This document shows positions 32,766 through 56,131 of a stretch of 64,000 bases of DNA, piece after piece. Source of the DNA: Myxococcota bacterium (GTDB lineage: Bacteria > Myxococcota_A > UBA9160 > UBA6930); NCBI GenBank assembly GCA_965223415.1, contig OZ245002.1:1184001-1248000 (forward strand). The letters run 5' to 3'. The notes below the pieces were generated by a model. That model was given only the letters and a program-made list of their open reading frames with translations, made no database searches and was not told the origin of the DNA. The position numbers and the translations under genes are program-made. The stretch's first letter is position 1. Each line of letters begins with the position of its first letter.

Positions 32766-34280
32766 GGCGCTGCCTTCCTGCTGTCCCCGGGGTCGAGGGT
32801 ACCGCGCCGTGGCGCCCTCGCGATGGGGCAGCGCGCCCCTCCGTGTCGGGCGGACGCGGCGGCCCCGCGCGCCTCGACGAATCGCCGGTGGGTGGCCAGC
32901 GGGAAGATCAGGTCCAGCTCGATGGACTCGATCGCGAAACCCTGGGCGGCCGCGCCTCGGCGCGGGAATTTGACGGCGGTCCCCGGGTTCCCGAGACTCC
33001 TCGGGGCTCACGCGCCGGTAGCTCAGCTGGATAGAGCACCAGGCTTCGAACCTGGGGGTCGGGGGTTCGAATCCCTCCCGGCGTGCCAAAGATTCCGCGT
33101 ACTTGGAGAGCTCACGAGTACGCTCCCTATCGGCCGGTGCCGAATAGTGCCGTCCGGTGCCGCTTGGAAACTCCGCAAACGTCAGGTCCGTCTCTTCCTC
33201 GCGCATCGCGTGCGCGTAGACCCGAAGCGTGAGCGCCGGGTCGGCGTGCCCGAGGACGTCAGCGACCCAGCGGACAGACTTCCCCGATTGAAGCGCGAAC
33301 GTGGCCCAGGTGTGGCGGGTGGCGTGAAGCTTCAGAGGGCGAACTCCGTAGGCCTCCTGTGCCTTCTCTCGAACACGCTCCCAGGTTCGGCTGAGATTCC
33401 GGGGCGTGATGGGGGTTCCGTTTCGAGTCGAGAAGACCCACGGCGGCGCATCCTGGCCGCGCTCGGAGGCCGTGGCGCGGGCTTTCGCGAGGACATCGAA
33501 CAAGTCCTCAGCGAGGGCTTCTGTCATCGGGACGCGCCTCGACTTGCCGCTCTTCGGCGCGGTGATTCCCTGCTGAAGCAGCGAGCGGCGAATCCAGATT
33601 CTCCGGGAATCGAAATCGACGTCACTCCACCTGAGCGCCAGGACCTCGCCGCGGCGGACTCCGGTCGAAAGGAGCGTGGAGAGGATGGGTGCGAATTCAG
33701 GCTCAGAATCTCGGGCAGTCTGGAGGAGACTCTCAATCTCTTCGCGGGTCCAGTGCTCCGTGACTTCGGCGCCAGTGGAGCCAGCGCGCGAGACGCGGCG
33801 CATGAGCTCACCTACGTGCGAAGCCGGATTCCGCTCGAGCCTTCCCTCTCGAACGAGGAGAGTGCACACCCGGCGAAGTACGCCGAGCGCGTTCAGAATC
33901 GTCTTCGGGGACAGTCCATCGTCTAGCTTCGCCCTTACGAACCGAAGGAGGTCTGCCTCCTTGACCGCTCGAAGGTCCTTCGAGCGAAAGAACGGGATGA
34001 GATGATGTTCGATGAGCCCGTGGCTCAGTTCTGCCGTGGAGGGCTTGAGCGTCGCCGAGTACGCCTTGAACCAAGCGCGAAGCTCCGCATCAGCTCGAAG
34101 CGGCTTCTCGCCGTGCGGGTCGAAGGTGCCGAGTGCAAGCGAGGCGTTGACCTTTGCAGCGATGGTCTCCGCCGTGGCCTTGTCGCGCTTCGTGGGACCA
34201 ACGCGCTTCGTGGTCCGGGTGGAGCGGTAGTGGGTCACGACCCACCAAGCGCTGCGCATCCACTTGACCTTGGCTGCCAC
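32112..34280 (-). CDS. Tyrosine integrase (catalytic domain ends ~33200; ORF has no stop until 32112)
   Basis: Catalytic set TGVRRGE, PKSG, LHATRH, LGHAD, LRVYAH; adjacent to tRNA; reads antisense through the tRNA. Confidence 0.88.
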   Translation of the reverse strand: MAAKVKWMRSAWWVVTHYRSTRTTKRVGPTKRDKATAETIAAKVNASLALGTFDPHGEKPLRADAELRAWFKAYSATLKPSTAELSHGLIEHHLIPFFRSKDLRAVKEADLLRFVRAKLDDGLSPKTILNALGVLRRVCTLLVREGRLERNPASHVGELMRRVSRAGSTGAEVTEHWTREEIESLLQTARDSEPEFAPILSTLLSTGVRRGEVLALRWSDVDFDSRRIWIRRSLLQQGITAPKSGKSRRVPMTEALAEDLFDVLAKARATASERGQDAPPWVFSTRNGTPITPRNLSRTWERVREKAQEAYGVRPLKLHATRHTWATFALQSGKSVRWVADVLGHADPALTLRVYAHAMREEETDLTFAEFPSGTGRHYSAPADRERTRELSKYAESLARREGFEPPTPRFEAWCSIQLSYRRVSPEESREPGDRRQIPAPRRGRPGFRDRVHRAGPDLPAGHPPAIRRGARGRRVRPTRRGALPHREGATARYPRPRGQQEGSAMVTDLPSFERRLLLALGVIAVIAIVGTLAILPYRLYERDIRNAKLYAHRTSGLVHASVARALENGTDVDVLLERLRSISDAGIRLEPLPPTEARASEDWGRGQSDVDGTTLTYTAPPVRAADGTHWRLETKYDIAVLKRDSVRLIIDLLIAVVVASAAFSGVIFVLVRGGLLRPMRHITDELERVAMHGGEPDLPPASSRELAAFRKAASRLSHPEA
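33012..33088 (+). tRNA. tRNA-Arg(TCG), probable integration site
   Basis: Cloverleaf: acceptor GCGCCGG/CCGGCGT, D-arm GCTC/GAGC, anticodon stem CCAGG/CCTGG with loop CT-TCG-AA, TTCGAAT T-loop, encoded CCA. Confidence 0.96.
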
Positions 34281-35905: not shown

Positions 35906-36027
35906 TCTCTGGTGTCCGCGTAGTCTGTTCAATCCAAGTGCATCACCAGTCTCGGTGAGCACTACTTCTGGTTTAACCTGCTTGAAGTAGCTCTCGCAAT
36001 CGGGTTTCTCTGCGATTACGCCGTCGC

Positions 36028-36390
36028 CTACTTCCGCTTCGGCCTACCGGTTCGAAGGGGACCCTCGCGCTCCTTGAATGGCCTTCGGTCGTTGTGCTCC
36101 CGCTCTAGCTTCTTGACGTGTGCCATGAGCGCTTCGTCCGCGAACTCAGAAAGTGTGTACCGGTGAGGTGGTCCCGATAGTGCATCCACGGCGTTTCGAA
36201 CCCGCTCAATCGTGGAGGCTCGAATCCAGTAACCCTCCTTCTGCTTAAGTGGCGGAGGGTCCGCACTGGGAGGGCTCGACTGAGGTTCCTTCGTTCGCTG
36301 GCTAGAAGCAGCGCCGAACTTCTTCTTTCCCGAGGGAAACCCGCCCTTTAGGGCCTGAAGTGGGCTATCGGAGATGGCCTTCCTACTCAT
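36028..36390 (-). CDS. Small centromere-binding protein (ParB_C/RHH-like)
   Basis: Overlaps parA stop; C-terminal TLSEFADEAL...LEREHNDRRPF...LRTGRP. Confidence 0.65.
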   Translation of the reverse strand: MSRKAISDSPLQALKGGFPSGKKKFGAASSQRTKEPQSSPPSADPPPLKQKEGYWIRASTIERVRNAVDALSGPPHRYTLSEFADEALMAHVKKLEREHNDRRPFKEREGPLRTGRPKRK

Positions 36391-37201
36391 TGGCTGCATT
36401 CCCGGCCGGGGCTTCAAGGGCGACCTTAGAAACGAACTCATCTGCGAGCGCCCCGTAGTCCAGTGCTCCAGAGCTCTTCGGTCGATGATGGTCAATCGGG
36501 AGCTTCGCCTGAGAAGCGCGCTTCAAGTCGACGTTCATCCGGATGACCGTCTCAAAGACAAGCTCTCCGAAGTGCGCCCGAATGTCCTCTAACGCGGCGA
36601 TGCTCATCGACTCTCTAACGTCGAGCTTCGTTCCAAGCACCCCGCAGATTGGTATCTCGGCTCTAGCGTCTCGCTCGGTCTCGGTGATGAACTGAACGAC
36701 CATCGCGGTTGGCTCGAGCGAGAGATAGGCGAGCTCGACGGGAAGAAGGACAGAATCCGAGGCAAGGAGCGCGCACTGAGTGTCGATTCCGAGGCTTCCC
36801 GGCGTATCGATTAGAACGAGGTCCCAGTCTGCACCGGGAACGCTTCGAAGCCCTTCCAGAGCATCGCGGAGGACGAACTCAGGCCGGGCCTTAAGCGAGG
36901 CCAGAGCAGTTTCAAGCGTCAGCAGGTCGAGGCTACTTGGGACAACGTCTACTCCCGACGGGGTTTCATAGACGAGAGCCTCAAGGCCTTGGCGAGCTAC
37001 AAGGGCTTCCACCAGCGCTTGGCCGTGGCTTCTCTCGGTCTCTGACGAAGGCGTTCGAAGCCAGTCGGTGGTCTGGTGTTGCCTATCGAGGTCGATTGCT
37101 AGAACGCGCCAGCCCCGTCGAGCGAGGGCGCTCGCGAGGTTCACCACCGTTGTGGTCTTCCCCACTCCACCTTTTGTGTTCAATACAGAGACCGTCTGCA
37201 C
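36383..37201 (-). CDS. parA: ParA/Soj-family ATPase
   Basis: KGGVGKTT deviant Walker A, IDLDRQ, LIDTPG, FETVIR. Confidence 0.92.
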   Translation of the reverse strand: MQTVSVLNTKGGVGKTTTVVNLASALARRGWRVLAIDLDRQHQTTDWLRTPSSETERSHGQALVEALVARQGLEALVYETPSGVDVVPSSLDLLTLETALASLKARPEFVLRDALEGLRSVPGADWDLVLIDTPGSLGIDTQCALLASDSVLLPVELAYLSLEPTAMVVQFITETERDARAEIPICGVLGTKLDVRESMSIAALEDIRAHFGELVFETVIRMNVDLKRASQAKLPIDHHRPKSSGALDYGALADEFVSKVALEAPAGNAANE

Positions 37202-37257
37202 GGAACTCTCCCCAGAAACAAGACCTCAGGAGCGGAGGAGCGCCCGCTCAGCTCCGT

Positions 37258-37490
37258 TTCGCCCGATATGCCCACCATCTGATTCGGGCGACTTTCCGTC
37301 AATAGGGAAACTTCGCCCGCCAGGGTCGCTGGGAGAACTCGGCGAACTGGGGTCGGGGGGAACAACGCACCCGGTGGGCGAACCGGGGGAGATGGGAGCG
37401 AAGCCACCGGTTCGCCCGATTGGAGAACCGGCACCAGTTGACCCAGGAGCCAGCGAGACCAGAGAAGACCGAGCGGGCCCAGTGGGCGAA
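37258..37490. repeat. Cluster of GGGCGAA heptamers upstream of parA (candidate parS/operator)
   Basis: Exact copies at 37258, 37312, 37411 (as TTCGCCC) and 37376, 37484, plus several near-matches. Confidence 0.5.
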
Positions 37491-37505
37491 ACGACCCCGT
37501 TTCGA

Positions 37506-38096
37506 CTAGGCAGCTCGACTTGTCTGTCTTCGGATGGACGCAGGCGCCTGGCGAAGTGTTGCGTAGACGCGCCGTTGGATGGGAGCGGCCGAGTAGGAGC
37601 GCGAAACCCGATACCGGATGAGGGGGACGCCCGCCGCGGCCAGGGCTGCATCTACAAAGCGGTCACGTTCTCTTCGGTCGGGCCGCCTGTGGGAAGCGTC
37701 ATCGAGCTCGATGCAGCAAGCCACTCGAAGCGAGTGTGGGTTCACGAGCGTGAAATCAAGGTGCTTTGAGGCGATTGGAGGGCCGTAGCCGTTCGACCAC
37801 TCGTCGTCAGAACAGTGAATCACGTCCGCGAGACGGACCTTGGGACACACCTTTAGGCCTGGCTCTACTGCATCGCGCAAGGCCGCGTAGAAGCGCGCTT
37901 CGGCCTTGGTGGCTAGGAAGGGGCGAGCCGAGTAGGGGAGCTCTGCCGGGTTGTTGGTGCGGTGAATCCTCCTGTAGCGCTCGTCTCGAAACTCATGAGC
38001 CCTGACGCCGGTGAGATAGAGAAACGTGACGACAATGAGGGCGCCAGTGAGCGAAAAGGGAAACACCGCGTGAAGTGCTGGAAGAAACGTCTCCAT
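37506..38096 (-). CDS. DUF2726 domain protein
   Basis: N-terminal TM; AEARFY, PKVRLADVI, KHLDF, IELDDASH, RDRFVD motifs. Confidence 0.85.
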   Translation of the reverse strand: METFLPALHAVFPFSLTGALIVVTFLYLTGVRAHEFRDERYRRIHRTNNPAELPYSARPFLATKAEARFYAALRDAVEPGLKVCPKVRLADVIHCSDDEWSNGYGPPIASKHLDFTLVNPHSLRVACCIELDDASHRRPDRRERDRFVDAALAAAGVPLIRYRVSRSYSAAPIQRRVYATLRQAPASIRRQTSRAA

Positions 38097-38139
38097 GGCC
38101 CAGAGTCTCACCAATCCAGAATCTACGCAAACACCACGC

Positions 38140-39835
38140 GTGAGGTGAGTAGCGCCTCGGAGTGTGAGATGGTGCTCCGATGTAGGTCGCGAGACTCGTT
38201 ATGCACATGCACACGAGCTTGGCGATGTTCCTCATCGAGCACGGTGACGGGAAACAGGCACTACCAACGCCTGATAACCGGAAGCCTAACCAGCTTCGCT
38301 CGTCCGTGTCCTCGACGCGCCGGATGCATCGAGAGGTGCTTGTCCGGTGGAAGGAGGAGCTCTACGGGGAGAGCGCGAGCTCTCCGGAAACCCCTACCTG
38401 CAAGGTCAAACCAACGCCCCACGTGGGCAGACGAGAATGGAGGAAACGTTTTTGCTCTGCCGCATGGCAGAACTGTCTTTCTGGGGAAGTTCCCCAAGGA
38501 AGACCCGCCAGGAGGCGATTGACCACAGTAGGGACGGAATCCCGTAGTTCGACCTCATCAACCTCGGCCGCGAGTCGAGGAACTGGGGCGACCCTGAAAT
38601 CGTGTCGAGGGGAGACCTTCGGTGCGCGCGTGTTTCAAAGTCGAGACGAGAGTCTCGATGTTCCATGGCTGCGGCCTTGGGGCAGAGGTTTGAATCCTCT
38701 CAAGGGGAGAGTCCGTCGTGGTGTGGCTTGCTATCCACGGGCGGTGACGGCTGCGATGCCCAACTCACCTTGCTAGGCGCGGGAGTCAGTCTCGAGCAAT
38801 CGAGAGTGCCGGAAGTTGTCACTTCCGGGTGACCTTGGACCATGGTTTCACCATGAGGTCAAGGCACACGAATAGCTCAACGCGTTCATGGGCGAATGGA
38901 TGAAGCCCTACCTAGTACGGAATCTTGGAAGACGGGGGGTACCCGAAGGAAGTCGCGCGAAAACGGCGCGACTTCCCAAGCGGTACTGAAGGCCGAATCG
39001 TGAGAACCGGACTGTGACTACTTGGTAAGCGGGTGCTTTGTGGTTCTACCCGCCGAAAGCGTCTCCGCGGAGATGTGATTCCGATGACCTCGAGTGGGAG
39101 GCACGGACCCAGTACCGGAGTGCCCGTACGGGCTATGCGACGTGAGCCAAGATTCGATGATGCACGCTAAAGGGGGAGTCTCCTTCTGGGGACCGATGGT
39201 GGTTCATCGGTAAGCGGAGTGACGTCCGTTGGCGGTTCTTCGGAACCGACCCTTGAAGGAGAGGGAGCTCGACTGAGTAGGATGGCTCTGGGACTCGGAG
39301 TGAAACCATGGGGGTGGTTCCCGATGGTCACGCTCTTTCTGCTGGCAGTGGAAGGTCCTCTCCGTTTGAGCCTGGGTGGTACCAGGTGAGGAGCTAACGA
39401 AAGGTCGTTCGAGGACCTGGCGACAGGTCTCGGTGAGAACTAGCCAGAAGGCGCTTCGAACGAGAAGCGCGGGCAAGTGGCCACGAGAGGTTCTCCGGGA
39501 GGAGGCCTCTCGTGGCAGCTGGCACCAGCGAGAGCCGGAGTGATAGCTCCTGCTCTCGCACAAGTTGGGCGGAACCATCATGGAACATGATGGAGCTGTC
39601 TCTTCGTGGAACCACAGCTCTTGGCGCGAAGCGCCTGCACGATGCTGTGGCAACGGTCCGAAAACGAGGAAGGAGGTTTCAAGAACTGCGGCGAAACGGG
39701 GCCGTGGGCGAGCGCTGAAGTGAAGGGAGGCGAGACGATGGAAGGTCCATCGTCTCGCGCCGGCCCGGGGGCAGAAGGTTTGAGACGAAGGTCCGGGCAT
39801 TCGTGGAGTTGGCCGGCAACCTAACTCCACCCCTT
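38140..39835 (+). ncRNA. Candidate giant structured non-coding RNA (family not recognised; ends approximate)
   Basis: No credible ORF; dozens of hairpins, many with GNRA or UUCG loops on the + strand; nested long-range helices; terminal hairpin 39803-39830. Confidence 0.7.
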
Positions 39836-39915
39836 TCTCGGCTGTCGCATGCGGCGGTGGAGGACGGTGAGTTCGATGTTGATTCGCGACCTGACTTCGT
39901 GCGATGACGGGGGCT

Positions 39916-40389
39916 ATGGGAAAGGTTCGGCTTTCTTTCGAAGTCGACGAGGATGATGCCGCGGAGCTTTGCGAGGCAGCCACCGTGTGGTGCGAGGACG
40001 ACGTTCCAGGGCTCCTTCGACAGCTCGTCGGAAACCTTGCGAGTTGGTGTCGAGGGAATCGCGACTACGCTGAGGACCCCGATGAGTGGGCGGCATTCCT
40101 CGCATGGGACCCGGCGAACTTCGAATTCCTCGGGGACTTCGTTCGGGCGAACGCTCCGGCGTTCGAGACAGACTACGACCTCTCGCTAGGCGAGCTCCGG
40201 TACGGAAAGCAGATTTCGACGCGCGACTTCGCTGCTCTGAAACTCGAGGACGGCTCCATTTTTGTCTTCGATGACGGAAAGGCGTGGTTCCTTCGCGCCC
40301 CACGATTCGACCATCCGACGCTCTCAGCGCGGGCGCGTGATTCCATCCGGCGATTCACTGAGGCCAAGGTGGTGTCGTCGTGGAACTAG
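39916..40389 (+). CDS. Hypothetical protein
   Basis: Acidic, globular-looking ORF; no motif recognised. Confidence 0.6.
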   Translation: MGKVRLSFEVDEDDAAELCEAATVWCEDDVPGLLRQLVGNLASWCRGNRDYAEDPDEWAAFLAWDPANFEFLGDFVRANAPAFETDYDLSLGELRYGKQISTRDFAALKLEDGSIFVFDDGKAWFLRAPRFDHPTLSARARDSIRRFTEAKVVSSWN

Positions 40390-40503
40390 CGGCTGCAAGC
40401 TACTCCACCGCATCGCACTGGAAGGAGCTCCGCAACCATCGCTGGAACGGCAAGAACCGGGGTGGTTGCTTGAGTAGGAACCGGGTTAGGTGCAGAATCG
40501 GCC

Positions 40504-41310
40504 ATGGCGACCGAACCTGCTTTCCCAACCGAATGCCCATCTATCGAAGCGCTTGTGCAGCGCGTGGTGAACCTTGCTGGCCACGGGTACTTCTACTTCT
40601 GTAATGGTGAGCTCGGAAAGGGAGACAACCGGAGTGAGCTCGACCGAAAGATGGTCGAGAAGTACTGCCTCCTCAAGCACGGCTGCCGCGCTCTCTCGAA
40701 ACCGAGGCGCTCTCGTCGCCGGAAAAATGGCCTCGCAAATGTCGACTACTTTCGCTTCCGGTACGGCTTTGTTCTGATGGCCACCGAAGGCCTGGTCGCC
40801 ATGGGAGTCGACGACCCGGACACCTTCCGAGACATTCGAGAGAGCCCGCTTCGCTTTGGCGACTACCAGGTAGCGGTGACGAACGTCGGGTTCTCAGAGG
40901 GGGGGGCACTCTCTGCGAAGGTCTGGACAGAACTCACGGACGTGGCGCTTCAGGCCCTTCGCCGCGAGTTCATGGCCCGAGCAGGCGACAGGCGAGCGGG
41001 TTGGCTTGAGAGCGAGTTCTACTCGGTTCAGTACAACTGCTACCGAGGAATTCGCGTTCAGCTTCGTTCAATTCTGGACGAGGTGAACCGCTATCGCAGG
41101 GTGAGGGGACTAGGAACACTCTCCCCTGGCTGCATCAAGTTCACACGGGAACTCCCGAAGCACTTCTCCGATGAACGGTTTAGTGCGTCGGATGCAAATG
41201 TGGTGCCTACTCAGACTCTCGCTGCTCCCAAACCGGCGGAAGCTCGACGCCAAGAACCAACCTGTAGAGCGAGAGCGTGGCGAGGTGAATCTCTACCGCA
41301 GCGCGCCTGA
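40504..41310 (+). CDS. Basic hypothetical protein
   Basis: HGYFYF...LDRKMVEKY...RRSRRRKNGLANVDYFR...FVLMATEG; resembles an uncharacterised mobile-element family from memory only. Confidence 0.65.
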   Translation: MATEPAFPTECPSIEALVQRVVNLAGHGYFYFCNGELGKGDNRSELDRKMVEKYCLLKHGCRALSKPRRSRRRKNGLANVDYFRFRYGFVLMATEGLVAMGVDDPDTFRDIRESPLRFGDYQVAVTNVGFSEGGALSAKVWTELTDVALQALRREFMARAGDRRAGWLESEFYSVQYNCYRGIRVQLRSILDEVNRYRRVRGLGTLSPGCIKFTRELPKHFSDERFSASDANVVPTQTLAAPKPAEARRQEPTCRARAWRGESLPQRA

Positions 41311-41734
41311 CATCCGTTGAACTGAGGGCCTCAACCGAGGTCTTGAGCTTCCCGCGAGCTGAACCCGTGGCAATCAGGTGGTGTCCCGATCCGTCTGGGG
41401 CGATTCCGTCGTGCATGAAGCGATTCCTCTTTCGCTGGGCAACGCGGAGCTTCGAGAGCACTTCCTCATGCCCAAGAAGACGCGGGTCGTGCGGTCCGAG
41501 TTGCTCACATAGCGAACCAAGCGCATCGAGCTTCTGAGGGAAGCTCATGTGGTTGAAGAGGATGAAGGGAGTTGGGTCGTGCACCTCGTCGAAGCCAGCG
41601 AGCTTCCCGAGACAGAGGTTCATGAGCGAATCGAGCGTCGTCCAGAGAGACGCTACACGCCCAAGTTCCTCTAGGAAGTCGGCGGGTAGGGGCCATCCAG
41701 AGAGGTCGAGTGAGTCGAGCTCTGCGTTCTTCAT
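41207..41734 (-). CDS. HEPN-like protein
   Basis: Helical protein with RNRFMH (Rx4H) and N-terminal ELGRV...W...D pattern. Confidence 0.55.
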   Translation of the reverse strand: MKNAELDSLDLSGWPLPADFLEELGRVASLWTTLDSLMNLCLGKLAGFDEVHDPTPFILFNHMSFPQKLDALGSLCEQLGPHDPRLLGHEEVLSKLRVAQRKRNRFMHDGIAPDGSGHHLIATGSARGKLKTSVEALSSTDVRRAAVEIHLATLSLYRLVLGVELPPVWEQRESE

Positions 41735-41901
41735 ACCACTCCCTATTGCGCCCTTGTATTGGCATCGAACAACGCGATTCTGCCCCAACGCGAGATGCGC
41801 CGTCTCGTCAAGTTTGCCCCACCCAAACGGGTGGAGGGAGAGCGATAGCGCCCGCTTGTGGCTCAACGGCTATCGTCGAGGACTTGAACCGGAGGTCCGT
41901 T

Positions 41902-43668
41902 GTGTATATCTCCAGGTTAGTTGTCCGCAATCTTCGAAACTTTGAACGGTGTGACGTTGAGCTCCGCGATGGGGCGACTTGTGTCGTGGGCGAGAACAAC
42001 AGCGGAAAGTCCAACCTTCTCTATGCGATTCGGCTGGTTCTTGACCAGTCACTTCCGAACTACACCAGGGTCCTCACGGAGGACGACGTCCACTCAGGTT
42101 GCGATATCTCGCACCCTTCCGACGTATTGGTGTCTGTGGAGTTCCGGAACTGGGCTGATTCGGTGAAGGCTTCTGCGCTCGTTGGTGAGTGGGAAGTTGA
42201 GCCTGACCGAGCGCGGCTTACCTACCGGTTCCGCCCCCGGAAAGCTGTCCGAGATGACCTTGATGCGGGGGAGAGGCGGCCCGGGAGCCTGTCTATTGGT
42301 GACTACGGGTGGGAGCTCCGCGGCGGTGGCGCGGTGGACCCAGTGGAGCTCACTTGGGATGTCGACACCGGGACCAGCCCCCGGCCAGGGCATCTCCAGG
42401 CGTTCCAGGTCTCTTTCCTTCACCCACTCAGAGACGTGGAGAGAGACCTTAGGGCCGTCCGGACGTCCCCGCTGAATCGGATTCTGGAGGTTGTGGGGAT
42501 TCCAGATGCGGAGAAGGAGAAGCTTGTCGCACTACTCGCCAAGGCCAACGAGGAGATCGCAGCCTCTAAGACCGTTACGGAGGTAGGCAAGGACATCTCG
42601 AGCTCCTTCGGGGAAACCTCGGGGCCCGCCTCCAAGCTGGACTTGAAGCTGGGAGTCGCAGCACCGTCCTTCTCTACGGTGACCCGTGCCCTGCGGGTGT
42701 TGTTGTCGGATTCGGCCCTCTCAGACTTCGACACCTCGAGAAACGGGCTTGGGCTCAACAACGTGCTCTACATCAGCATGCTGCTTCAGGACTTCGAGGC
42801 TCGAGCGAAGACCGATGGAGTGGCCGGACAGCTGCTCTTGGTTGAGGAGCCCGAAGCTCATCTTCATCCGCAACTCCAGCGGACTCTGTACGACGTACTC
42901 GCGGAGAAGGACTTCCAGTCGATTCTCACGACGCACAGCACTCACGTCACCTCGAAGGCCAAGCTCAACTCGGTAGTGACGCTTGCTCGAACGGGCGGAC
43001 CAGCTGTGTCTGTGGCTCAACCGGGCCGCGTCGCCGGAGTAGCGGCGAAGGAAGTCGCGGACCTAGAGCGCTATCTCGACGCTACCCGCTCAACGCTGCT
43101 GTACGCGCGAGCGGTGATGCTCGTAGAGGGCCCTGCGGAACTGTTCCTCATCCCAGAGCTCGCTCTTTCCGTGATGGGGAAAGACCTCGACCGGGAGGGT
43201 ATTTCAGTCATCCCCATCTATGGGACCCACTTCGCGGCGTACGCACCCCTCTTCCGTGATGGGTCCATGAAGAAGCGCTGCGCGATTGTCGGAGACAAAG
43301 ACCTGAAGCCGTCTGACGCCGAGGATGCTCCTGACCCCGCGCGCGTAACCGAGCTTCTGGCACTTCAAAGCGACACCGTGAAGGTATTCTTGGGCGATAC
43401 CACCTTTGAACGCGAGCTCGCGGTTTCCGGCATGGTAGGGCCGCTGCTCGCTGCCGCGAAGGAGTTCAACGCAACGTCACTGATTGCAGAGGCGGAGGAA
43501 TCACAGCAGGCGGGTGAACCGACCGACGAGCTGGCCGAGCGAATCCTCGCAACGGCGCGACGCGTCGGGAAAGCCCGGTTCGCACAGGCGCTCTCGAAGC
43601 ACGTCGGCGATGCCACGGCGATGCCCGAGTACGTCAAGCAAGCGGTGGACTTCCTGGTGGCAGAGTAG
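41902..43668 (+). CDS. gajA: OLD-family ATP-dependent nuclease (Gabija GajA-like)
   Basis: GENNSGKS, LVEEPEAHLHP, TTHS; TOPRIM LVEGPAE and DKD; RBS GGAGG. Confidence 0.82.
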   Translation: MYISRLVVRNLRNFERCDVELRDGATCVVGENNSGKSNLLYAIRLVLDQSLPNYTRVLTEDDVHSGCDISHPSDVLVSVEFRNWADSVKASALVGEWEVEPDRARLTYRFRPRKAVRDDLDAGERRPGSLSIGDYGWELRGGGAVDPVELTWDVDTGTSPRPGHLQAFQVSFLHPLRDVERDLRAVRTSPLNRILEVVGIPDAEKEKLVALLAKANEEIAASKTVTEVGKDISSSFGETSGPASKLDLKLGVAAPSFSTVTRALRVLLSDSALSDFDTSRNGLGLNNVLYISMLLQDFEARAKTDGVAGQLLLVEEPEAHLHPQLQRTLYDVLAEKDFQSILTTHSTHVTSKAKLNSVVTLARTGGPAVSVAQPGRVAGVAAKEVADLERYLDATRSTLLYARAVMLVEGPAELFLIPELALSVMGKDLDREGISVIPIYGTHFAAYAPLFRDGSMKKRCAIVGDKDLKPSDAEDAPDPARVTELLALQSDTVKVFLGDTTFERELAVSGMVGPLLAAAKEFNATSLIAEAEESQQAGEPTDELAERILATARRVGKARFAQALSKHVGDATAMPEYVKQAVDFLVAE

Positions 43669-45426
43669 GTGAAACTCACCAACGACCAGCGAGATGCGAC
43701 CCGGATTCCGGGCGACGTCTTGCTCGAGGCCTGCCCCGGAAGCGGCAAGACGACCACCCTCATCGCGAAGCTCCTGCGATGTGCCGACGATGTCCGCGAC
43801 TCGGTACGGCGTGTCGGGTGCATCACCTACACAAACGCAGCAGTTCATGAAATTGAGCACCGTCTTCGACTCTACGCCATCGCGGATGACGAAGAGCGAT
43901 TCGACATCGCGACGATTCACTCATTCTGTCTACGCAACATCCTTGGGCCGTTCCATTGGATGCTCCCCGAGTACCGAGACGGCTTCGAGGTTGCGGCGCC
44001 CGACAGCGAGGCGTTTCAAAGCCGGGCCGATACGGTGGCGGATGACTTCTTGCTCAACCACCGCTCAGCTCGCGAGAGCTTCGAAGTCGCTAACCGACTT
44101 CCGGATGGCTCCCCGGTTGTGCGCCCTCCCACGCCACCCGAAGCGGTGCTTCAGTTCTGGGACTCTCTGTCTAGCGACGGCCTTATCGACTTCACCAACA
44201 TCGTGTTTCGTTCGTTCGAGCTCCTCACTCAGCACCCAAGCCTCCTCTCCAGCATCCAGGCGAAGTACGCCTGGGTTCTCCTAGACGAGTTCCAGGACAC
44301 GACAGCACTTCAGGTCGAGCTCTTGAAGCTCATCGCAGATGGCGAAAGGACGAGGTTCTTCCTCGTAGGGGACACACGCCAGTCCATCTTCGGCTTCGCT
44401 GGTAGCGACCCTTCGCTCATGTCCGAGTTCGGCAACCACGTTGGCGCCACCCAGGGCCCGCCGCTGGTCGAGAACTTTCGGTCGAGCTGGAAGGTCGTAG
44501 AGCACGCCGAGAGACTCCTCGAAGGCTCCGCGCCGATGGAAGCGAAGGGCGAATGGGCGGATTACGGCGCAGAGCCCAAGCTAGTCGAGTGTGAGAATCC
44601 CTTTGTCTCCATCACGGACCACTTTCTTCCCGCGCTTGCCGACCATGGAATCGGGTACGGCGATGCGGCGGTTCTTGCCGCCCAGTGGTTCAGCCTCTAT
44701 CCGCTTGCGGGCCGACTGCGGGAGTTCGGAGTACCCGTGGTAGGGCCCGGTGCGCGACCGTATCGACGTTTGCACTTCTACGCGTCACTGGCGGAGCAGC
44801 TTTGTGCTCAAGCTGAGAACCCTCGACCGGACCGCATTAGGCAGGTGGAACGCGAGGTCTTCTTCCTGCTGAACGACCTCACGGGCGATGCACTAAACAG
44901 CGTTTACTCCTTCCGCGGCCGCATGGTGATTGAGCGGCTCATCCGCCTCGCGCATGAGAAGCGAGAACAACACGACGGGGCACTGGCCTGGTTGCGGGAG
45001 TCAGCGGAGGAAGTCGGTGCGGTACTCCAGCATGAAGGATGGCTCGGGTCGGCGGACGTGACTCGCTTGGTGGAGTCTGTGGACGGCATGGTGGCCGACA
45101 TGGAGAAGAACGACGTCGACGTCGAGAATCTCCTTGTGTCGGACCTGGGGATGTTCGCGGACCCAGCGGAGAGCCTGAAGCTCCTGACTCTCCATCGGGC
45201 CAAGGGGAGAGAGTTCGACGCCGTTGCGATAATCGACGTGCACGATGGGATGATTCCACACTCGTCGGCCAAGACTGAGGAGGCGGTCGACGAAGGCAGG
45301 CGCTTGTTCTACGTGGGTATTACGCGAGCGAAGAGGCTTCTCTTCTACTTCACAAGCAGCGAGAACTGGCGACCACTGAGCAGGTTCTTGGGCCCGGGAG
45401 AGCTCGAGTTGCTGGACGCCCCTTAG
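43669..45426 (+). CDS. gajB: UvrD-like helicase (Gabija GajB-like)
   Basis: ACPGSGKT, LLDEFQD, VGDTRQSIFGF, ENFRS, TLHRAKGREF, FYVGITRAK; abuts the OLD gene. Confidence 0.82.
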   Translation: MKLTNDQRDATRIPGDVLLEACPGSGKTTTLIAKLLRCADDVRDSVRRVGCITYTNAAVHEIEHRLRLYAIADDEERFDIATIHSFCLRNILGPFHWMLPEYRDGFEVAAPDSEAFQSRADTVADDFLLNHRSARESFEVANRLPDGSPVVRPPTPPEAVLQFWDSLSSDGLIDFTNIVFRSFELLTQHPSLLSSIQAKYAWVLLDEFQDTTALQVELLKLIADGERTRFFLVGDTRQSIFGFAGSDPSLMSEFGNHVGATQGPPLVENFRSSWKVVEHAERLLEGSAPMEAKGEWADYGAEPKLVECENPFVSITDHFLPALADHGIGYGDAAVLAAQWFSLYPLAGRLREFGVPVVGPGARPYRRLHFYASLAEQLCAQAENPRPDRIRQVEREVFFLLNDLTGDALNSVYSFRGRMVIERLIRLAHEKREQHDGALAWLRESAEEVGAVLQHEGWLGSADVTRLVESVDGMVADMEKNDVDVENLLVSDLGMFADPAESLKLLTLHRAKGREFDAVAIIDVHDGMIPHSSAKTEEAVDEGRRLFYVGITRAKRLLFYFTSSENWRPLSRFLGPGELELLDAP

Positions 45427-46368: not shown

Positions 46369-49300
46369 ATGGCCGAAGGCCTGAGGACCATCAGAACGCC
46401 TGAGCTTTCGTGGCGCCGCCGCCACGACGTGGGGGAGTTCTGGCACGTCGTCGAACCGGCACGAGAGCGGCCAATCACGAAGAGCGACACCACGCTCGTC
46501 TCGGCCAAGGTCGAACAGCCCCTGCTGACCCTCGATGGCGATGAGGCCTTCGTCGTCACGGACCGGCGAAGGTGCCCGCACCCCAAAGGCGCCCGCGGTG
46601 TCTTGCGCAATGGACCCGAGGGCGAGCTTGAGTGGCTCTCTCACAAGCTCATCCCATCGACTGACCCGCCGCCTGCGCAGTGGAAAGAGCGCCGCGCCCA
46701 GGCGACAAAGTCCTGGGAAGCTGGAATTCGCTATGTCGCCGAAGACCCGGAAGACCCCATATCGAAGGGGTTTCGGCCACCGCAGCTCGGCGCACTCCAT
46801 GGACTTGGTTCGCACTGGAGTTCCACCTTTTCCGCGGCCACGGTTGTCATGCCGACCGGCACTGGAAAGACCGAAGCAGCGCTTGCTCTTCTCATCGCTC
46901 AGGCCCGAGGGACACTTCTCGTGGTGGTCCCCAACCGCGCGCTTCGAGACCAGACTGTTCGAAAGTTTAAGACGCTCGGGCTTCTCCGTGAGCTCGAGGT
47001 GGTCGACCCACACGTGTTGAACCCAGTGGTGGGTGTCCTCACCAAGCGCCCGCGAACTACCGGGGACCTCGACATCTTCGAGGACTCGAACGTGGTCGTC
47101 GCAACGATGGACGCCATCGGCTACGGCACCGCCCTCCCGCTCGCCTCGGAGATTGCGGCCAGAGTGGACATGCTCGTGGTCGATGAGGCGCACCACATTC
47201 CGGCCAAGGGCTGGCAGACGTTTCGAGACGCCTTCGCCGACAAGGTCCGGGTGGTTCAGTTCACGGCGACCCCGTTTCGACGGGACCAGAAGCTCGTCGA
47301 AGGCGAAGTGGCCTACGAGTACACGCTTCGCCAAGCCCAGAAGGCCGGCTACTTCAAGCCTATCCACTTCGACCCGGTGTTCGAAGTCGACTCAGATGAT
47401 GGCGACAAGGCCATCGCGGAGAAAGCGGTCGCGAAGCTCGAGGCGGATATCGCTGGCGGGCTTGACCACCTGCTGATGGCGCGGTGCAAGAGCATCGAGC
47501 GGGCGCGAGGCCTACACGCCCTCTACGAGCGTATCGCCGCCAAGCACTCTCCCATCCTCGTTCACTCGCAAGAGGCCGACTCGGCGAAGCGGATTCAGCA
47601 GCTCTTCTCGCGCGATAGCCGAATCGTGGTTTGCGTAGACATGCTGGGTGAGGGGTTTGACCTCCCGGAGCTAAAGGTTGCCGCCGTCCACGACATGCAC
47701 CAGAGCCTCCCTGTGCTGCTCCAGTTCGCTGGTCGATTCGTTCGGACCGCAGGAGACACCGTTGGCGACGCGACGGTCATCGCGAACATCGCCGATGTCG
47801 AAGTCTCCGACGCACTCGAGCAGCTCTACGGCGACGACGCGGACTGGAACCACCTTCTCTCCGAGCTCAGCTCGCAGGCGGCCAGAGAACACAAAGCACT
47901 CGTGGACTTCCTCAACGAGTCCGAGGCCATCCACGAAGAGAGCGAGGTTCCCCTCCAGTCGCTCTCGAGCAGTTTGCTTCGCCCGAAGCTCAGCGCCGTC
48001 GCCTACCGGGCGACTAGCTTCTACCCCCGGCGCTTCATCGACGCCGTGGCGAAGGGCACGGAGGTGCACTCCGTCTGGCTCCACTCGGACTCGAACACGC
48101 TCTACTTCGTGACGCGAACCGAGCCGGCCGTACCGTGGACGCGCTCCAAGGAGGTGCGCGACCGGCAGTGGGACCTCTTCGTGGTCCACCACGAGCCCGA
48201 GCTTGGGCTTCTCTTCATCAACTCGAGCGACAAGAACTCGCTCCACAAGGAACTCGCCGCCGCCGTCTCAGACGATGAGCCGACGCTCATCAACGGGGAC
48301 GCCGTCTTTAGGTCGCTCTCGAACGTGAAGCGGCTTCGGATTCCGAACCTTGGGGTGAGCCGACACGCTCGGCGAAACCTCCGCCACGCCCAGTACATGG
48401 GTGCAGACGTGAAGCAAGGCCTCGACAACGCACAGCTCGTGGGCGCAACGAAGTCCAACTTGAGCGCCACGGGGTTTGAAGAGGGGCGGCCCGTGAACCT
48501 CGGATGCTCCTACAAGGGGCGCGTGTGGTCGGTGAAGAACGGCGTCATCCCCGAGCTACTCGACTGGTGCGGCCACGTCGGCCGAAAGCTCGTCGATGAG
48601 AGCATCAACACGAACGAAATCATCGACAACGTGATGATTCCCGAGGAGGTCGCGGAGCTTCCGGATGCGGAGGTTCTGAGCCTTGAATGGCCGCTCGAGC
48701 TCCTCAACAAGCCCGAAGAGCGCGTGACCGTCAGAACCGCCGACAACGAGACCCCGCTTGCGTTCACTGAGCTCGTGTTCGATGAGCTCCGCCGGGCTGA
48801 TAGCGTGGTCGCGTTCCACGTCGAAGGTCCCGAGGGAAGGGCTGACCTAGAACTTCGAATCGGAGTCCAGGCGGGGTTTGAGGTGCACCAGGTGGCTGGC
48901 CCTCAAGCCAACATCGCCTTCGGGCGAACCGACAAGCCTCTGGCTGACTACCTCTCGGACTACCCGCCGCTTGTTCGCTTCGTCGACCTGAGTGAGCTCG
49001 ACGGACACCTCCTCGTTCGCCCGAAGGACATCTCCGAGCTCACCTTCCCGGCGGAAAGGTTCGAGGTCTGGGACTGGACGGGCGTAAACGTCAAGACCGA
49101 GTCCATCTGGAAGTACGGAGAGAGACGCGAGAACTCGATTCAGGAGCGGGTCGCCCAACACTTCATCGAGGGCGGCTTCGACATCGTCTTCGACGATGAC
49201 GATGCTGGCGAGGCCGCGGACTTGGTCTGCATGAAGGCAGAGGAAGACCACATTCGGCTCGTGCTCGTCCACTGCAAGTTCACCAAGAGCCCCTCTGGCG

Positions 49301-54902: not shown

Positions 54903-56131
<1,229 letters not shown>

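Follow-up and report, generated by a model that had tools for sequence, protein, structure and literature searches.

A probable circularly permuted group II ribozyme gene with an AcpG-like protein gene on a bacterial tRNA-Arg integrative element

The DNA analysed here, a stretch of 64,000 nt that we call the window, includes a gene-free gap of about 1.7 kb (38140-39835) between a DUF2726 gene on the other strand and, downstream on the + strand, a 161-aa ORF and a gene for a 268-aa protein at 40504-41310. The RNA that we assign to this gap and the 268-aa protein form a pair that is carried by a tRNA-Arg integrative element and lies beside a Gabija defence system; no attR repeat of that element, at a length of at least 18 nt, was found inside the window. 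Among the related loci described below, two others also stand beside anti-phage systems, with BrxA in L037 and a PD-T4-6-like kinase in L040.

A hairpin-rich gap without genes

A sequence-only reading had reported no credible ORF in the gap, and our analysis agrees. The longest frames (38201-38776 and 37962-38522 on the + strand, 39204-39983 on the - strand) have no Pfam match, and their GC content over the three codon positions is flat, at 0.55-0.62, as against about 0.66/0.46/0.70 in every real neighbouring gene. The ORF list, Pfam and codon-position GC together reveal no protein gene inside the RNA, and the first two no intron-encoded reverse transcriptase (RT) ORF. That 38833-39203 has no ORF at all was a slight overstatement, since frames of 45-58 aa are present there, but none is a credible gene.

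Twelve hairpins had been listed for the gap and all 12 are present, ten as inverted repeats (38368-38385, 38641-38658, 38790-38805, 38809-38828, 38948-38976, 39192-39211, 39480-39516, 39575-39593, 39730-39758 and 39803-39830) and the other two in the minimum-energy fold (39233-39248 with a UUCG loop, 39414-39429 with a GCGA loop). Folding z-scores, computed on both strands for 200-nt segments with 30 dinucleotide shuffles each, show that the gap folds better than its shuffled controls: over the 17 segments starting at 38100-39700 the mean z was -2.5 on both strands, the lowest value being -8.4 on the + strand at 39400-39599, and 13 of the 17 had z <= -1.8 on the + strand, compared with 0 of 11 flanking coding segments at 39800-40800 and 0 of 12 at 36000-37100. 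The z-scores do not distinguish the strands; the + strand is indicated by its lower absolute folding energy (16 of 17 gap segments), by the G-over-C skew of the gap (0.151, the highest in the window) and by the homology matches, all of which lie on it.

The proposal of a large structured non-coding RNA gene on the + strand is borne out, and the gap is neither a repeat array nor a decayed protein gene. Its proposed boundaries are about right, with conservation beginning near 38248 and a terminator-like hairpin ending the RNA at 39830; scanning the RNA ends found no sigma-70-like promoter, and a simple terminator scan called no classic terminator there. The size of about 1.7 kb stands for the gene but not for a single, uniformly conserved giant fold: a conserved core of ~1.2 kb with lineage-specific insertions is followed by ~400 nt of variable hairpins.

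Permuted group II domains and their relatives

No Rfam family reaches its gathering score in the gap. GOLLD, ROOL, OLE and HEARO, the large RNAs to which it had been compared, give no match at gathering score or at E <= 10 in 37500-40500. The first clue to its identity came from below threshold, in a match of 27.1 bits (gathering score 40; E near 0.3 over the whole window) between 38315-38403 and RF00029, the group II D5-D6 family, whose alignment displays a CGC triad, a G.U wobble, a 2-nt bulge, a GNRA loop and a bulged A. The sole other Rfam match at E <= 10, malK-III at 16.5 bits, was taken as chance, and the Rfam D1-D4 models do not match the downstream core. Circularly permuted (CP) group II ribozymes, described by Roth, Weinberg, Vanderschuren, Murdock and Breaker in 2021 (PMC8637638), have no curated model in Rfam 15; Rfam silence on the gap is expected, because Rfam also misses the known CP RNAs. 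Examples of the class are those of T. thermophilus HB8 pTT8, Polaromonas pPNAP05 and G. diazotrophicus pGDIPal5I; roughly 290 CP RNAs have been described so far, with a published size of ~900 nt, and according to the Discussion of that paper all five that were tested were active. Our comparisons with the published CP alignment refer to its first 400 columns. We assign the parts of the RNA and the two downstream genes as follows.

38141..38242, + strand: 5' leader with two hairpins (38141-38159, 38172-38242), from the fold; no conservation in the six-sequence alignment; promoter presumed
38255..38273, + strand: P1 hairpin, CAGGC / GCCUG, loop ACUACCAAC; stem covaries among six sequences
38281..38297, + strand: P2 hairpin, GAAGC / GCUUC, loop CUAACCA, from covariation; loop complementary to downstream hairpin loops
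38318..38349, + strand: domain 5, with CGC triad (C-G, G.U, C-G), 5 bp, UU bulge, 5 bp and GAGA tetraloop, from the RF00029 match and covariation
38352..38555, + strand: domain 6, with 5' strand 38352-38358, 3' strand 38548-38555 and bulged branch adenosine 38552, from relatives and model R3
38559..38585, + strand: linker between the predicted 3' splice site (after U38558) and 5' splice site (before G38586), from alignment to the published class
38586..38599, + strand: putative 5' splice-site / domain 1 start motif GGGCGACCCUGAAA, from a motif search
38600..39404, + strand: conserved core, putative domains 1-3, from models R1 and R2, conserved blocks and covariation
39192..39211, + strand: hairpin with loop UGGUU, tentative candidate kissing partner of the P1/P2 loops, from loop complementarity of 5-7 nt
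39371..39386, + strand: hairpin CCUGG-GUGGUA-CCAGG, candidate pseudoknot partner of the P1 loop, from complementarity in 6/6 sequences
39405..39802, + strand: variable 3' extension, domain 4-like, with long hairpins, from fold and inverted repeats
39803..39842, + strand: terminal hairpin GUGGAGUU / AACUCCAC with C/U-rich tail, likely RNA 3' end, from the inverted repeat
39904..40389, + strand: 161-aa ORF between the RNA and the AcpG-like gene, with no counterpart in relatives and coding-like GC of 0.66/0.46/0.71
40504..41310, + strand: 268-aa AcpG-like protein, candidate inactivated reverse transcriptase / maturase, from synteny, profile and structure similarity

The order is thus permuted, running from D5 at 38318 through the 3' splice site at 38558 and GGGCGAC at 38586 to the core models at 38761 and 39025. 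The same succession of P1, P2, D5, D6, short linker, 5' splice-site motif and large conserved core is found in at least six other loci. The canonical D1-D6 order is absent from this locus, where only 200 nt and then the DUF2726 gene on the other strand lie upstream of D5.

The loop of P1 is of the type of the CUAACCA / CUGCCAA loops of P1/P2 in the published alignment, and that of P2 exactly matches the loop of P1, and also that of P2, in the published member NC_010124.1/23090-23958. Complementarity of the P1/P2 loops is kept in 6/6 sequences, with altered sequences in L037 and L004 (UCACG/CGUGA in L004); the YACCA / UGGUR type is common to the two loops and their two candidate partners, and for this reason no unique pseudoknot pairing is assignable. 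Domain 5 is nearly identical in L004, the Leptolyngbya plasmid pLBX, where its 47.6 bits exceed the gathering score of 40, and the first position of its triad changes on both sides together, being A-U in four sequences and C-G in two.

Domain 6 is interrupted by a lineage-specific insertion of ~190 nt (38359-38547), which includes the hairpin 38368-38385 and a subdomain at 38392-38533. Its block GGAAUCCC-N4-UUCGACCUCAU aligns with all relatives and with the published CP RNAs, the 3' strand reading UUCGACCUCAU here and UUCGACCC-AAU in the published alignment, and the alignment with both places the predicted branch A 38552 six nt before AU|C at 38558. In the Rfam alignment an alternative compact closure at 38393-38399 would make A 38396 the branch site, and the circle, closed from 38585 to 38404, would then measure 182 nt; domain 6 has these two possible closures, as well as an A.G mismatch beside the branch site. 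The linker that follows is 27 nt long with a small hairpin (38562-38566 / 38576-38580), the published class having its linker between AAU|C and GGGCGAC; by analogy, back-splicing is predicted to free it as a 27-nt circle. A search of the window with pattern GGGCGACNNNGAMA, which derives from the published alignment, gives a single match, at 38586 (0.17 expected), and the pattern is also present in all three of the published CP RNAs fetched.

The core, about 850 nt in all, contains insertions specific to the window, for example at 38640-38659 and ~38895-38978, and its naming as D1-D3 is provisional, being based on position and short shared motifs such as GAAUAGCUCAA, which lies in D1 of published CP RNAs and in the putative D1 of the gap RNA. 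In the 3' extension, hairpins lie at 39451-39470, 39480-39516, 39528-39559, 39575-39593, 39612-39650, 39686-39707 and 39730-39758; relatives have an extension of similar length and position and unrelated sequence. Hairpins analogous to that at 39803-39842 immediately precede the protein gene in L004, L037 and L067.

Relatives came from a genome scan that gave at least 123 stretches, with flanks fetched for 80. At least six other loci, from distant bacteria, have the same RNA order followed by a homologue of the 268-aa protein: tblastn placed homologues in L037, L074, L040, L067 and L004, on the strand of D5 and 1.0-1.5 kb downstream of it, and one also on the B. cereus plasmid L003. The hosts of these forms comprise Planctomycetota, Cyanobacteria, Hydrogenedentes, a Bacillus plasmid and the high-GC host of the window. 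An ORF with YxDD precedes D5 in none of the four relatives with enough upstream DNA and is present in 26 canonical loci. In a pairwise alignment of the two gaps, the Leptolyngbya sequence is conserved with the window at D5 and the branch site only.

Three covariance models of short blocks, R1, R2 and R3, were built from the relatives with the window left out, and each matches the window once, in colinear order: R3 at 38533-38649 (E 0.0014, R3 E-values being rough owing to short calibration), R1 at 38761-38894 (30 bits, E 1.3e-6) and R2 at 39025-39058 (22 bits, E 0.002). R3, whose training set held no published members, also matches the published RNAs of pTT8 (L001, E 0.0014) and pPNAP05 (L002, E 0.0031) at the homologous place, and weakly a third, L128 (E 0.41). 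R1 matched only its own training sequences over 82 loci, and no canonical intron (0 of the other 77 loci at E <= 0.01); against published CP RNAs it gave nothing above noise, the correct place in L002 scoring a noise-level 10.4 bits with filters off, and R2 had no match among them. The helices covary among the homologues, with compensatory changes at 27 of 56 pairs in alignment A5 (window excluded), 12 of 29 in A7 and 22 of 36 in A11. In A11, an alignment that was fitted to the model, 94.0% of cells are paired, as against 72.0 +/- 1.9 in shuffles (0/500 reach it) and 31.5-40.5% with partners slid. MAFFT on a trimmed six-sequence set misaligned the D6/linker region of the window, and the placement given above relies on the other six-sequence alignment and on R3.

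The partner protein

Judged from its sequence profile, the 268-aa protein is distantly homologous to AcpG, the companion protein of CP RNAs. BLASTP against AcpG of pTT8 finds nothing. With hhalign, its family (p268) and AcpG gave 71.6%, rising with larger alignments to 94.7% (E 5.6e-8, 178 columns, co-linear), and the best hmmsearch E-value between them was 5e-6 at Z = 1e6. Genes of the AcpG family adjoin CP group II RNAs in the window and in at least six other loci, and the p268 family has 1635 cluster representatives at E <= 1e-3. Searches of Pfam, NCBIfam, PADLOC and PDB sequences with the 268-aa protein gave nothing. The neighbouring 161-aa ORF has no homologue other than itself and no match in Pfam, NCBIfam, PADLOC or PDB sequences.

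A further reading, to which we give even odds, is that AcpG-type proteins are inactivated, shortened descendants of group II intron RT/maturases that have kept palm and thumb and lost YADD. It draws on fold searches, profile comparison and a language-model search, each of weak to moderate strength. The top Foldseek matches of the window protein and of Thermus-type AcpG alike are group II intron RTs (e.g. PDB 8t2r_D, 8fli_B, 6me0_C), at E >= 0.017. The p268 profile aligns with those of 26 intron RTs from RT motif 5 to motif 7 and on into the beginning of the thumb (71.6%, score 45.7, with a maximum of 15.7 among 16 controls); hhalign printed identical figures (71.64%, 3.5e-5) for two different comparisons, and we therefore place weight on scores relative to controls. 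Thermus-type AcpG alone gave no signal against intron RTs (0.3%), and Pfam RVT_1 matches none of 86 family members. The YADD aspartates are absent, F85-R86-Y87-G88 replacing YADD in the 268-aa protein.

Interpretation and comparison with known systems

Taken together, these results argue that the gap is a CP group II ribozyme gene and that 40504-41310 encodes its associated AcpG-family protein, a reading to which we assign a probability of about 0.8. The family was not recognised from the sequence-only reading; it belongs, in our interpretation, to a class already named (PMC8637638).

Were the RNA novel and giant, or two such RNAs in tandem, outside all known classes, as first suggested, one would understand why no Rfam family reaches threshold, why blastn of the gap against plasmids and phages gives no match, and why its 1.7 kb is about twice the published class size. 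Known CP RNAs are equally silent in Rfam, however, and the D5 score of L004, the AcpG profile match, the GGGCGACNNNGAMA motif and the R3 matches contradict this explanation, which we consider very improbable. We think just as little of a dead D5-D6 3' fragment of an ordinary group II intron beside unrelated hairpin-rich intergenic DNA. D5-D6 alone match Rfam, below threshold, and the DUF2726 gene occupies the other strand upstream of D5, so that no D1-D4 lies there; yet downstream of D5-D6 at least six other loci share both sequence and structure with the gap, with covariation, the P1/P2 pair upstream is conserved too, the partner gene is syntenic, and a CP-class 5' splice-site motif follows D6. 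Least probable of all is a decayed protein-coding gene: open frames of 186-259 aa exist in the region, but they have no Pfam match and flat codon-position GC, and what relatives keep is base pairs rather than reading frames.

The strongest competitor, unlikely in our view though well ahead of those three, is a descendant of CP group II RNAs that no longer back-splices and serves as scaffold or partner of the AcpG-like protein in an RNP with another activity. The ~190-nt insertion in D6 is without precedent in what we have seen and the A.G mismatch stands beside the branch site; the intron end would be AU after CCUC, as against CCC-AAU in the published alignment of the class; the circle would be just 27 nt; and ~400 nt of non-conserved hairpins follow the core. 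On the other hand, the hallmarks are intact and conserved in relatives (D5 triad, G.U wobble, 2-nt bulge, GNRA loop, bulged A and 5' motif), and 5/5 of the published CP RNAs that were tested are active (PMC8637638).

If the gap does encode an active CP group II ribozyme, the biochemistry published for the class suggests the following course. The transcript would fold into a group II active site, and the 2'-OH of the bulged D6 adenosine 38552 would attack the 5' splice site before G38586; nucleotide 38585, its 3'-OH now free, would then use it to attack the 3' splice site after U38558. The 27-nt linker would leave as a circle, and the remaining product would be a branched, T-shaped RNA whose two parts, the P1-D6 piece and the D1-D4 piece, are joined by a 2'-5' linkage. 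The AcpG-like protein, as a catalytically dead RT/maturase descendant with palm and thumb, may bind the RNA as a folding helper, for which the evidence is weak to moderate.

Few large bacterial ribozyme classes still lack a known biological role, and CP group II ribozymes are among them. The present findings replace a supposed novel giant RNA in the annotation by a named class, and they broaden that class, which now takes in a larger form of more canonical appearance, having a GNRA domain 5 and an RNA of 1.2-1.7 kb. They also tie a protein family of unknown function, with its 1635 cluster representatives, to CP group II RNAs. AcpG has been described as resembling no known protein; its relative here gains a testable origin and job, as it looks like a dead reverse transcriptase retaining an RNA-binding maturase role. 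If that is true, the RNA-protein pair would be a domesticated, immobile group II ribonucleoprotein rather than a naked ribozyme, and at least 1635 protein clusters would mark a CP population far larger and more diverse than the ~290 described. The anti-phage neighbours here and in L037 and L040 make a role in mobile-element conflicts worth testing.

Among known systems, GOLLD, ROOL, OLE and HEARO are likewise large structured bacterial non-coding RNAs, often on mobile elements, and differ in that their Rfam covariance models leave 37500-40500 unmatched. Canonical group II introns share the D5/D6 architecture and the presumed chemistry, and many have the same D5 stem sequence; unlike them, the gap RNA has D5-D6 first rather than last, carries no intron-encoded RT gene, has splice sites that face each other across 27 nt, interrupts no gene and is unmatched by Rfam D1-D4. 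Their RT/maturases are the top structural match of the window protein and of AcpG, and both kinds of protein accompany a group II-type RNA, whereas AcpG-like proteins have ~230-270 aa as against ~420-600 aa, YADD is replaced, and the similarity is statistically weak.

AcpG of the TTHC007 type from Thermus resembles the window protein in length, in adjoining the RNA, in co-linear profile similarity (94.7%) and in the predicted order of secondary-structure elements, which is the same in both models. It differs in showing no pairwise BLASTP similarity, in that the window's family is far larger (1635 cluster representatives), and in that the window gene lies downstream of the RNA on the same strand, whereas the Thermus gene is divergent and upstream. 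Compared with the published CP group II RNAs, as far as the sources cited above show them, the gap RNA is larger (~1.6-1.7 kb against ~900 nt) and has a D5 with a GNRA tetraloop and CGC triad where the published alignment shows, in most rows, a 6-nt loop together with AGC; it also has the 190-nt D6 insertion and the 400-nt 3' extension, its partner is only remotely similar to AcpG, and the D1/core models miss the published members. In common with them it has the order P1-P2-D5-D6-linker followed by a putative D1, CUAACCA-type P1/P2 loops, a D6 3' strand of the form UUCGAC..AU, a short hairpin-bearing linker, GGGCGAC..GAMA at the start of this D1 and GAAUAGCUCAA within it, an RNA free of internal ORFs with an AcpG-family gene adjoining, and plasmids or mobile elements as carriers.

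A strongly folded gap on an integrative element

Here we identify the locus as a divergent, enlarged circularly permuted (CP) group II ribozyme with an AcpG-family protein partner, and no new class of RNA. It lies on an element of ~60% GC inside a host of ~72% GC. The element starts, with its integrase, at a tRNA-Arg (TCG) gene (33012-33088), and its gene order from there (33012-34280 and onward) is tyrosine integrase, HTH protein, replication-like protein and ParB-like/ParA genes. GC falls from ~0.72 to ~0.60 at the element and stays low from the tRNA-Arg to the window end (64000), which gives the integrative element a length of at least 31 kb; it extends past that end, and inside the window its far boundary is not marked by any direct repeat of 18 nt or longer. 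The features of the locus are as follows.

Features of the RNA gene and its neighbours
37506-38114, - strand: DUF2726 gene, 5' flank of the gap
38115-39903: gap without a credible gene
38255-38273, + strand: hairpin P1
38281-38297, + strand: hairpin P2, loop CUAACCA
38318-38349, + strand: domain 5 (D5)
38352-38358, + strand: domain 6 (D6), 5' strand
38548-38555, + strand: putative D6 3' strand, branch A at 38552
after U38558, + strand: predicted 3' splice site
38559-38585, + strand: linker, 27 nt with a small hairpin
before G38586, + strand: predicted 5' splice site
to about 39404, + strand: conserved core
to 39802, + strand: variable extension
39803-39830, + strand: terminal hairpin
39904-40389, + strand: orphan 161-aa ORF
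40504-41310, + strand: 268-aa AcpG-like protein (p268)
41710-45426, + strand: Gabija system

The absence of a credible ORF, claimed in a sequence-only reading, held: open frames inside the gap had no Pfam match, and their GC was flat across codon positions (0.55-0.62, versus ~0.66/0.46/0.70 in every neighbouring gene). All 12 hairpins listed in that reading were also recovered, ten as inverted repeats and two (39233-39248 and 39414-39429) in the minimum-energy fold. In 200-nt windows, each compared with 30 dinucleotide shuffles, z averaged -2.5 on both strands over the 17 gap windows starting at 38100-39700, with a minimum of -8.4. On the + strand 13 of the 17 had z <= -1.8, versus 0/11 and 0/12 flanking coding windows. 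Folding was thus better than in shuffles, but the z-scores were alike for both strands and did not single one out. Energy was lower on the + strand in 16 of 17 gap windows, and the G-over-C skew of the region (0.151) is the strongest of the window. Outside the gap, better-than-shuffled folding on both strands (z -2.2 to -3.4) also marks the ~300 nt that separate parA from the DUF2726 gene (37202-37505), which may act as a partition site or encode a further small RNA.

The 161-aa ORF, which separates ribozyme and AcpG-like gene in this locus only, has a clear coding GC pattern, no family match, no homologue among 5.8 billion clustered proteins and no counterpart in the relatives. Right after the locus, PADLOC identified a complete Gabija system, consisting of GajA (OLD-type ATPase/TOPRIM; E 1.6e-213, match from ORF residue 66) and GajB (UvrD-like helicase; E 1e-212). 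Further along, a 1087-aa helicase-like protein is encoded at 46369-49632 (+); it weakly matches PbeA, Dpd and Dnd-type restriction components, and its gene may be the element's second one for defence.

Domain 5 and the conserved core

At gathering scores, the only Rfam matches anywhere in the window are one tRNA and one ALIL pseudoknot; the latter (55737-55853, - strand, 115.7 bits) provides the frameshift signal for an insertion sequence of the IS3 family. The Rfam match sought for the gap was found below threshold: the sole notable match of a relaxed search of 37500-40500 was RF00029 (group II intron D5-D6) at 38315-38403 (+), at 27.1 bits, where the gathering score is 40. The hairpin at 38318-38349 is a textbook domain 5, with a CGC triad (C-G, G.U, C-G), five pairs, a UU bulge, five pairs and a GAGA loop. 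An ordinary group II intron, with D1-D4 ahead of D5, is excluded by the position of D5 in the 5' end of the gap, where just 200 nt separate it from an opposite-strand gene upstream.

Relatives were collected through the p268 gene and through D5. A tblastn search of plasmids with p268 gave five records, four from Leptolyngbya boryana and one 6-kb Bacillus cereus plasmid, with ~1.4 kb free of annotated genes ahead of the p268 homologue. In the Leptolyngbya gap (plasmid pLBX, L004), RF00029 scores 47.6 bits, above the gathering threshold; its D5 is almost identical to that of the window and is followed ~1.0 kb 3', on the same strand, by the p268 homologue. A degenerate D5 pattern was found in at least 123 stretches of species-representative genomes, and flanks were examined for 80. 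Most of those listed are ordinary introns, and at least 26 of the 80 have a YxDD ORF of 300 aa or more before D5. At least four have a p268 homologue on the same strand 1.3-1.5 kb 3' of D5, in metagenome-assembled genomes (MAGs) of Planctomicrobium (L037), Hydrogenedentales (L074), Phycisphaerae (L040) and Gemmataceae (L067). None of the four p268-homologue loci with enough upstream DNA has a YxDD ORF before D5, and no Pfam reverse transcriptase was found upstream in L037 or L074. In the B. cereus plasmid (L003, AP022897.1), the CP group II-like RNA crosses the start of the circular record (~5400-6009 joined to 1-310), and the plasmid seems to be largely this RNA and an AcpG-like gene.

Six aligned sequences share conserved blocks whose order does not vary: a pair of hairpins, D5, the D6 5' strand, AAUCCC-N4-UUCNAYC..AU, a short variable linker, GGGCGAC..GAMA, a hairpin, a three-way junction closing with GAAUAGCUCAAC, then GGUGCUUC...CCCGAAAGC, CUAGCGACGUGA, CUAA, GGCAGUGG, a GGGUGGUGCC hairpin and ACGAAAGG. 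Beyond these come ~400 nt of unrelated hairpins and the terminal hairpin, directly ahead of the protein gene. Covariance models of three blocks, built from five relatives with the window left out, each match the window, colinear with their order in the relatives.

Matches of the covariance models in the window
R3, D6 3' strand to first D1 hairpin: 38533-38649, 21.1 bits, E 0.0014
R1, three-way junction: 38761-38894, 30 bits, E 1.3e-6
R2, GGUGCUUC hairpin block: 39025-39058, 22 bits, E 0.002

The runner-up matches have E 0.27 (R3) and 0.25 (R2), with none for R1 at E <= 10; the record start inside the L003 RNA split one model match. The homologues bore out the proposed covariation, with compensatory changes at 27 of 56 predicted pairs among the five relatives, 12 of 29 in the P1-P2-D5 block once the window is added, and 22 of 36 in the junction block. 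Paired cells make up 94.0% in the latter, whereas shuffles give 72.0 +/- 1.9 (0/500 reach 94.0%) and sliding the partners gives 31.5-40.5%; this alignment had been fitted to the model, a bias in its favour.

The two D6 strands of the window would be separated by an insertion of ~190 nt absent from the relatives, containing the first hairpin of the sequence-only reading and, in the fold, a self-contained subdomain (38392-38533). The Rfam alignment would instead close D6 compactly, at 38393-38399, with A38396 as the branch nucleotide. We consider the distal closure the likelier by about two to one, because the AAUCCC...UUCNAYC..AU block is kept in every relative and matched by R3. In planctomycete-type relatives the distal D6 holds two GUAAUCC copies (L037 3530-3615, L074 3530-3600, L067 735-815; oriented copies); the window retains one copy of this type, GGAAUCCC (38536-38543). 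Additionally, hairpins 39192-39211 and 39371-39386 have loops whose sequences complement those of P1 and P2. Such complementarity is kept in all six sequences, with altered sequence in L037 (UUACGA/UCGUAA) and L004 (UCACG/CGUGA), and fits the class-specific pseudoknots of Roth et al., the exact partners being ambiguous.

The AcpG-like protein and its possible likeness to reverse transcriptases

No Pfam, NCBIfam or PADLOC match to p268 was found, and a word-indexed search gave four close relatives. Its profile, run against 1.84 billion representatives, found 1635 at E <= 1e-3, 1099 at <= 1e-10 and 352 at <= 1e-30. The published account of CP group II RNAs (Roth et al. 2021, PMC8637638) describes AcpG as a ~260-aa protein often encoded near class members, without known relatives and resembling no known protein class. 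BLASTP of p268 against AcpG of the Thermus plasmid pTT8 gave nothing. Because profile comparison of the two families gave 71.6% with 8 versus 18 sequences and then 94.7% with 154 versus 81 (E 5.6e-8, 178 co-linear columns), p268 is taken to be a distant AcpG. The 3' part of its gene (40900-41199, +) has very strong local folding (z -7.4 at 41000-41199, -2.95 at 40900-41099), ending just ahead of an overlapping minus-strand ORF (41207-41866).

The AlphaFold model of p268 is confident (pLDDT 87.9, pTM 0.79). Foldseek found no PDB match at E <= 1e-3; the top of the list, all at E > 1e-3, is mostly group II intron-lineage reverse transcriptases: the intron proteins 8t2r_D (E 0.017, probability 0.66), 8t2s_D, 8h2h_D, 8fli_B, 7uim_D, 6ar3_D and 6me0_C, and also retrons Eco8 and Ec86, G2L4, DRT9 and DRT2. 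An independent model of a Thermus-type AcpG (pLDDT 92.2, pTM 0.89) again had an intron protein as best match (8fli_B, E 0.078, probability 0.44), and against 6me0_C it gave TM 0.43 and rmsd 5.9 over 288 columns; every other listed row had probability <= 0.11. Using a profile of 26 intron proteins from canonical loci, hhalign scored the p268 family at 45.7 (71.6%, P 3.5e-5); a control with the alignment reversed scored 14.9, and none of 15 controls with shuffled columns exceeded 15.7. The alignment places residues 43-158 on reverse transcriptase motif 5 through motif 7 and the thumb start, with the invariant R84 aligned to the R of VRYADD and F85-R86-Y87-G88 at the YADD position. The model has a beta-hairpin at residues 80-93 and three helices at 146-200, which may be read, short of a superposition, as the expected motif C hairpin and thumb. 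The nearest named cluster in a language-model atlas is RVT_1 (weak, 0.79). Two results count against a reverse transcriptase reading: Pfam RVT_1 matched 0 of 86 family members, and Thermus-type AcpG alone gave no profile signal against the intron proteins.

Descent of AcpG-type proteins from an intron reverse transcriptase/maturase is possible, and is the most interesting residue of this analysis, followed by the size and spread of a protein family that marks CP group II RNAs. Among the openly accessible papers found that name these RNAs, Roth et al. alone name AcpG, and no discussion of the protein was found in the available text of a 2026 NAR paper or a 2026 preprint.

Comparison with the published class and with canonical introns

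Roth et al. (PMC8637638) give the class ~900 nt, the order P1-P2-D5-D6-linker-D1-D2-D3-D4, splice sites usually < 100 nt apart, and a small circle and a branched RNA as products. We compared three plasmid members: pTT8 (L001), pPNAP05 (L002, NC_008761.1/33-834) and pGDIPal5I (L128, NC_010124.1/23090-23958). Neither L001 nor L002 has any Rfam match, RF00029 included; the silence of Rfam on the window is therefore expected. R3 matches L001 (5734-5832, - strand, E 0.0014) and L002 (192-314, +, E 0.0031) exactly at the 3' splice site-linker-5' splice site region, and L128 weakly (E 0.41). A single copy of the motif GGGCGACNNNGAMA, taken from the published alignment, lies in the window (at 38586), where 0.17 are expected; 15 of 100 shuffles hold one or more. 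Among 128 loci the motif is found in all three published members, L003, L004, L040, L067, L074 and one further (L022). In the same alignment, NC_010124.1 has the window's P2 loop, CUAACCA, in P1 as well as in P2, its D5 stem has the sequence of the window's family, and UUCGAC(C/U)C-AAU is matched by the window D6 3' strand, UUCGACCUCAU. Because R1 and R2 did not reach the published members and R1 did not match canonical introns, the label 'D1-D3' for the conserved core is our inference from position and short motifs.

The sequence-only reading was thus right that a large + strand structured RNA gene is present; its proposal of an unrecognised family gives way to the CP group II class, through the R3 matches, the shared motif, the P2 loop and the AcpG-family partner. 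Relatives also have defence genes as neighbours, with BrxA in L037 (5924-6904, +) and a PD-T4-6-like Ser/Thr kinase in L040 (3860-4852, +, locus coordinates) beside the ribozyme/AcpG-like pair; none was found in the examined flank of L074, and L001 and L003 carry the RNA on small plasmids. By analogy with the published class, the 27-nt linker would likely be back-spliced into a circle, leaving a branched RNA behind.

In canonical group II introns D1-D4 precede D5, whereas here D5 stands at the 5' end of the gap and the conserved core lies downstream. Like many class members as described, the window RNA has a small hairpin in its linker; compared with the ~900 nt of published members, it is enlarged and divergent.
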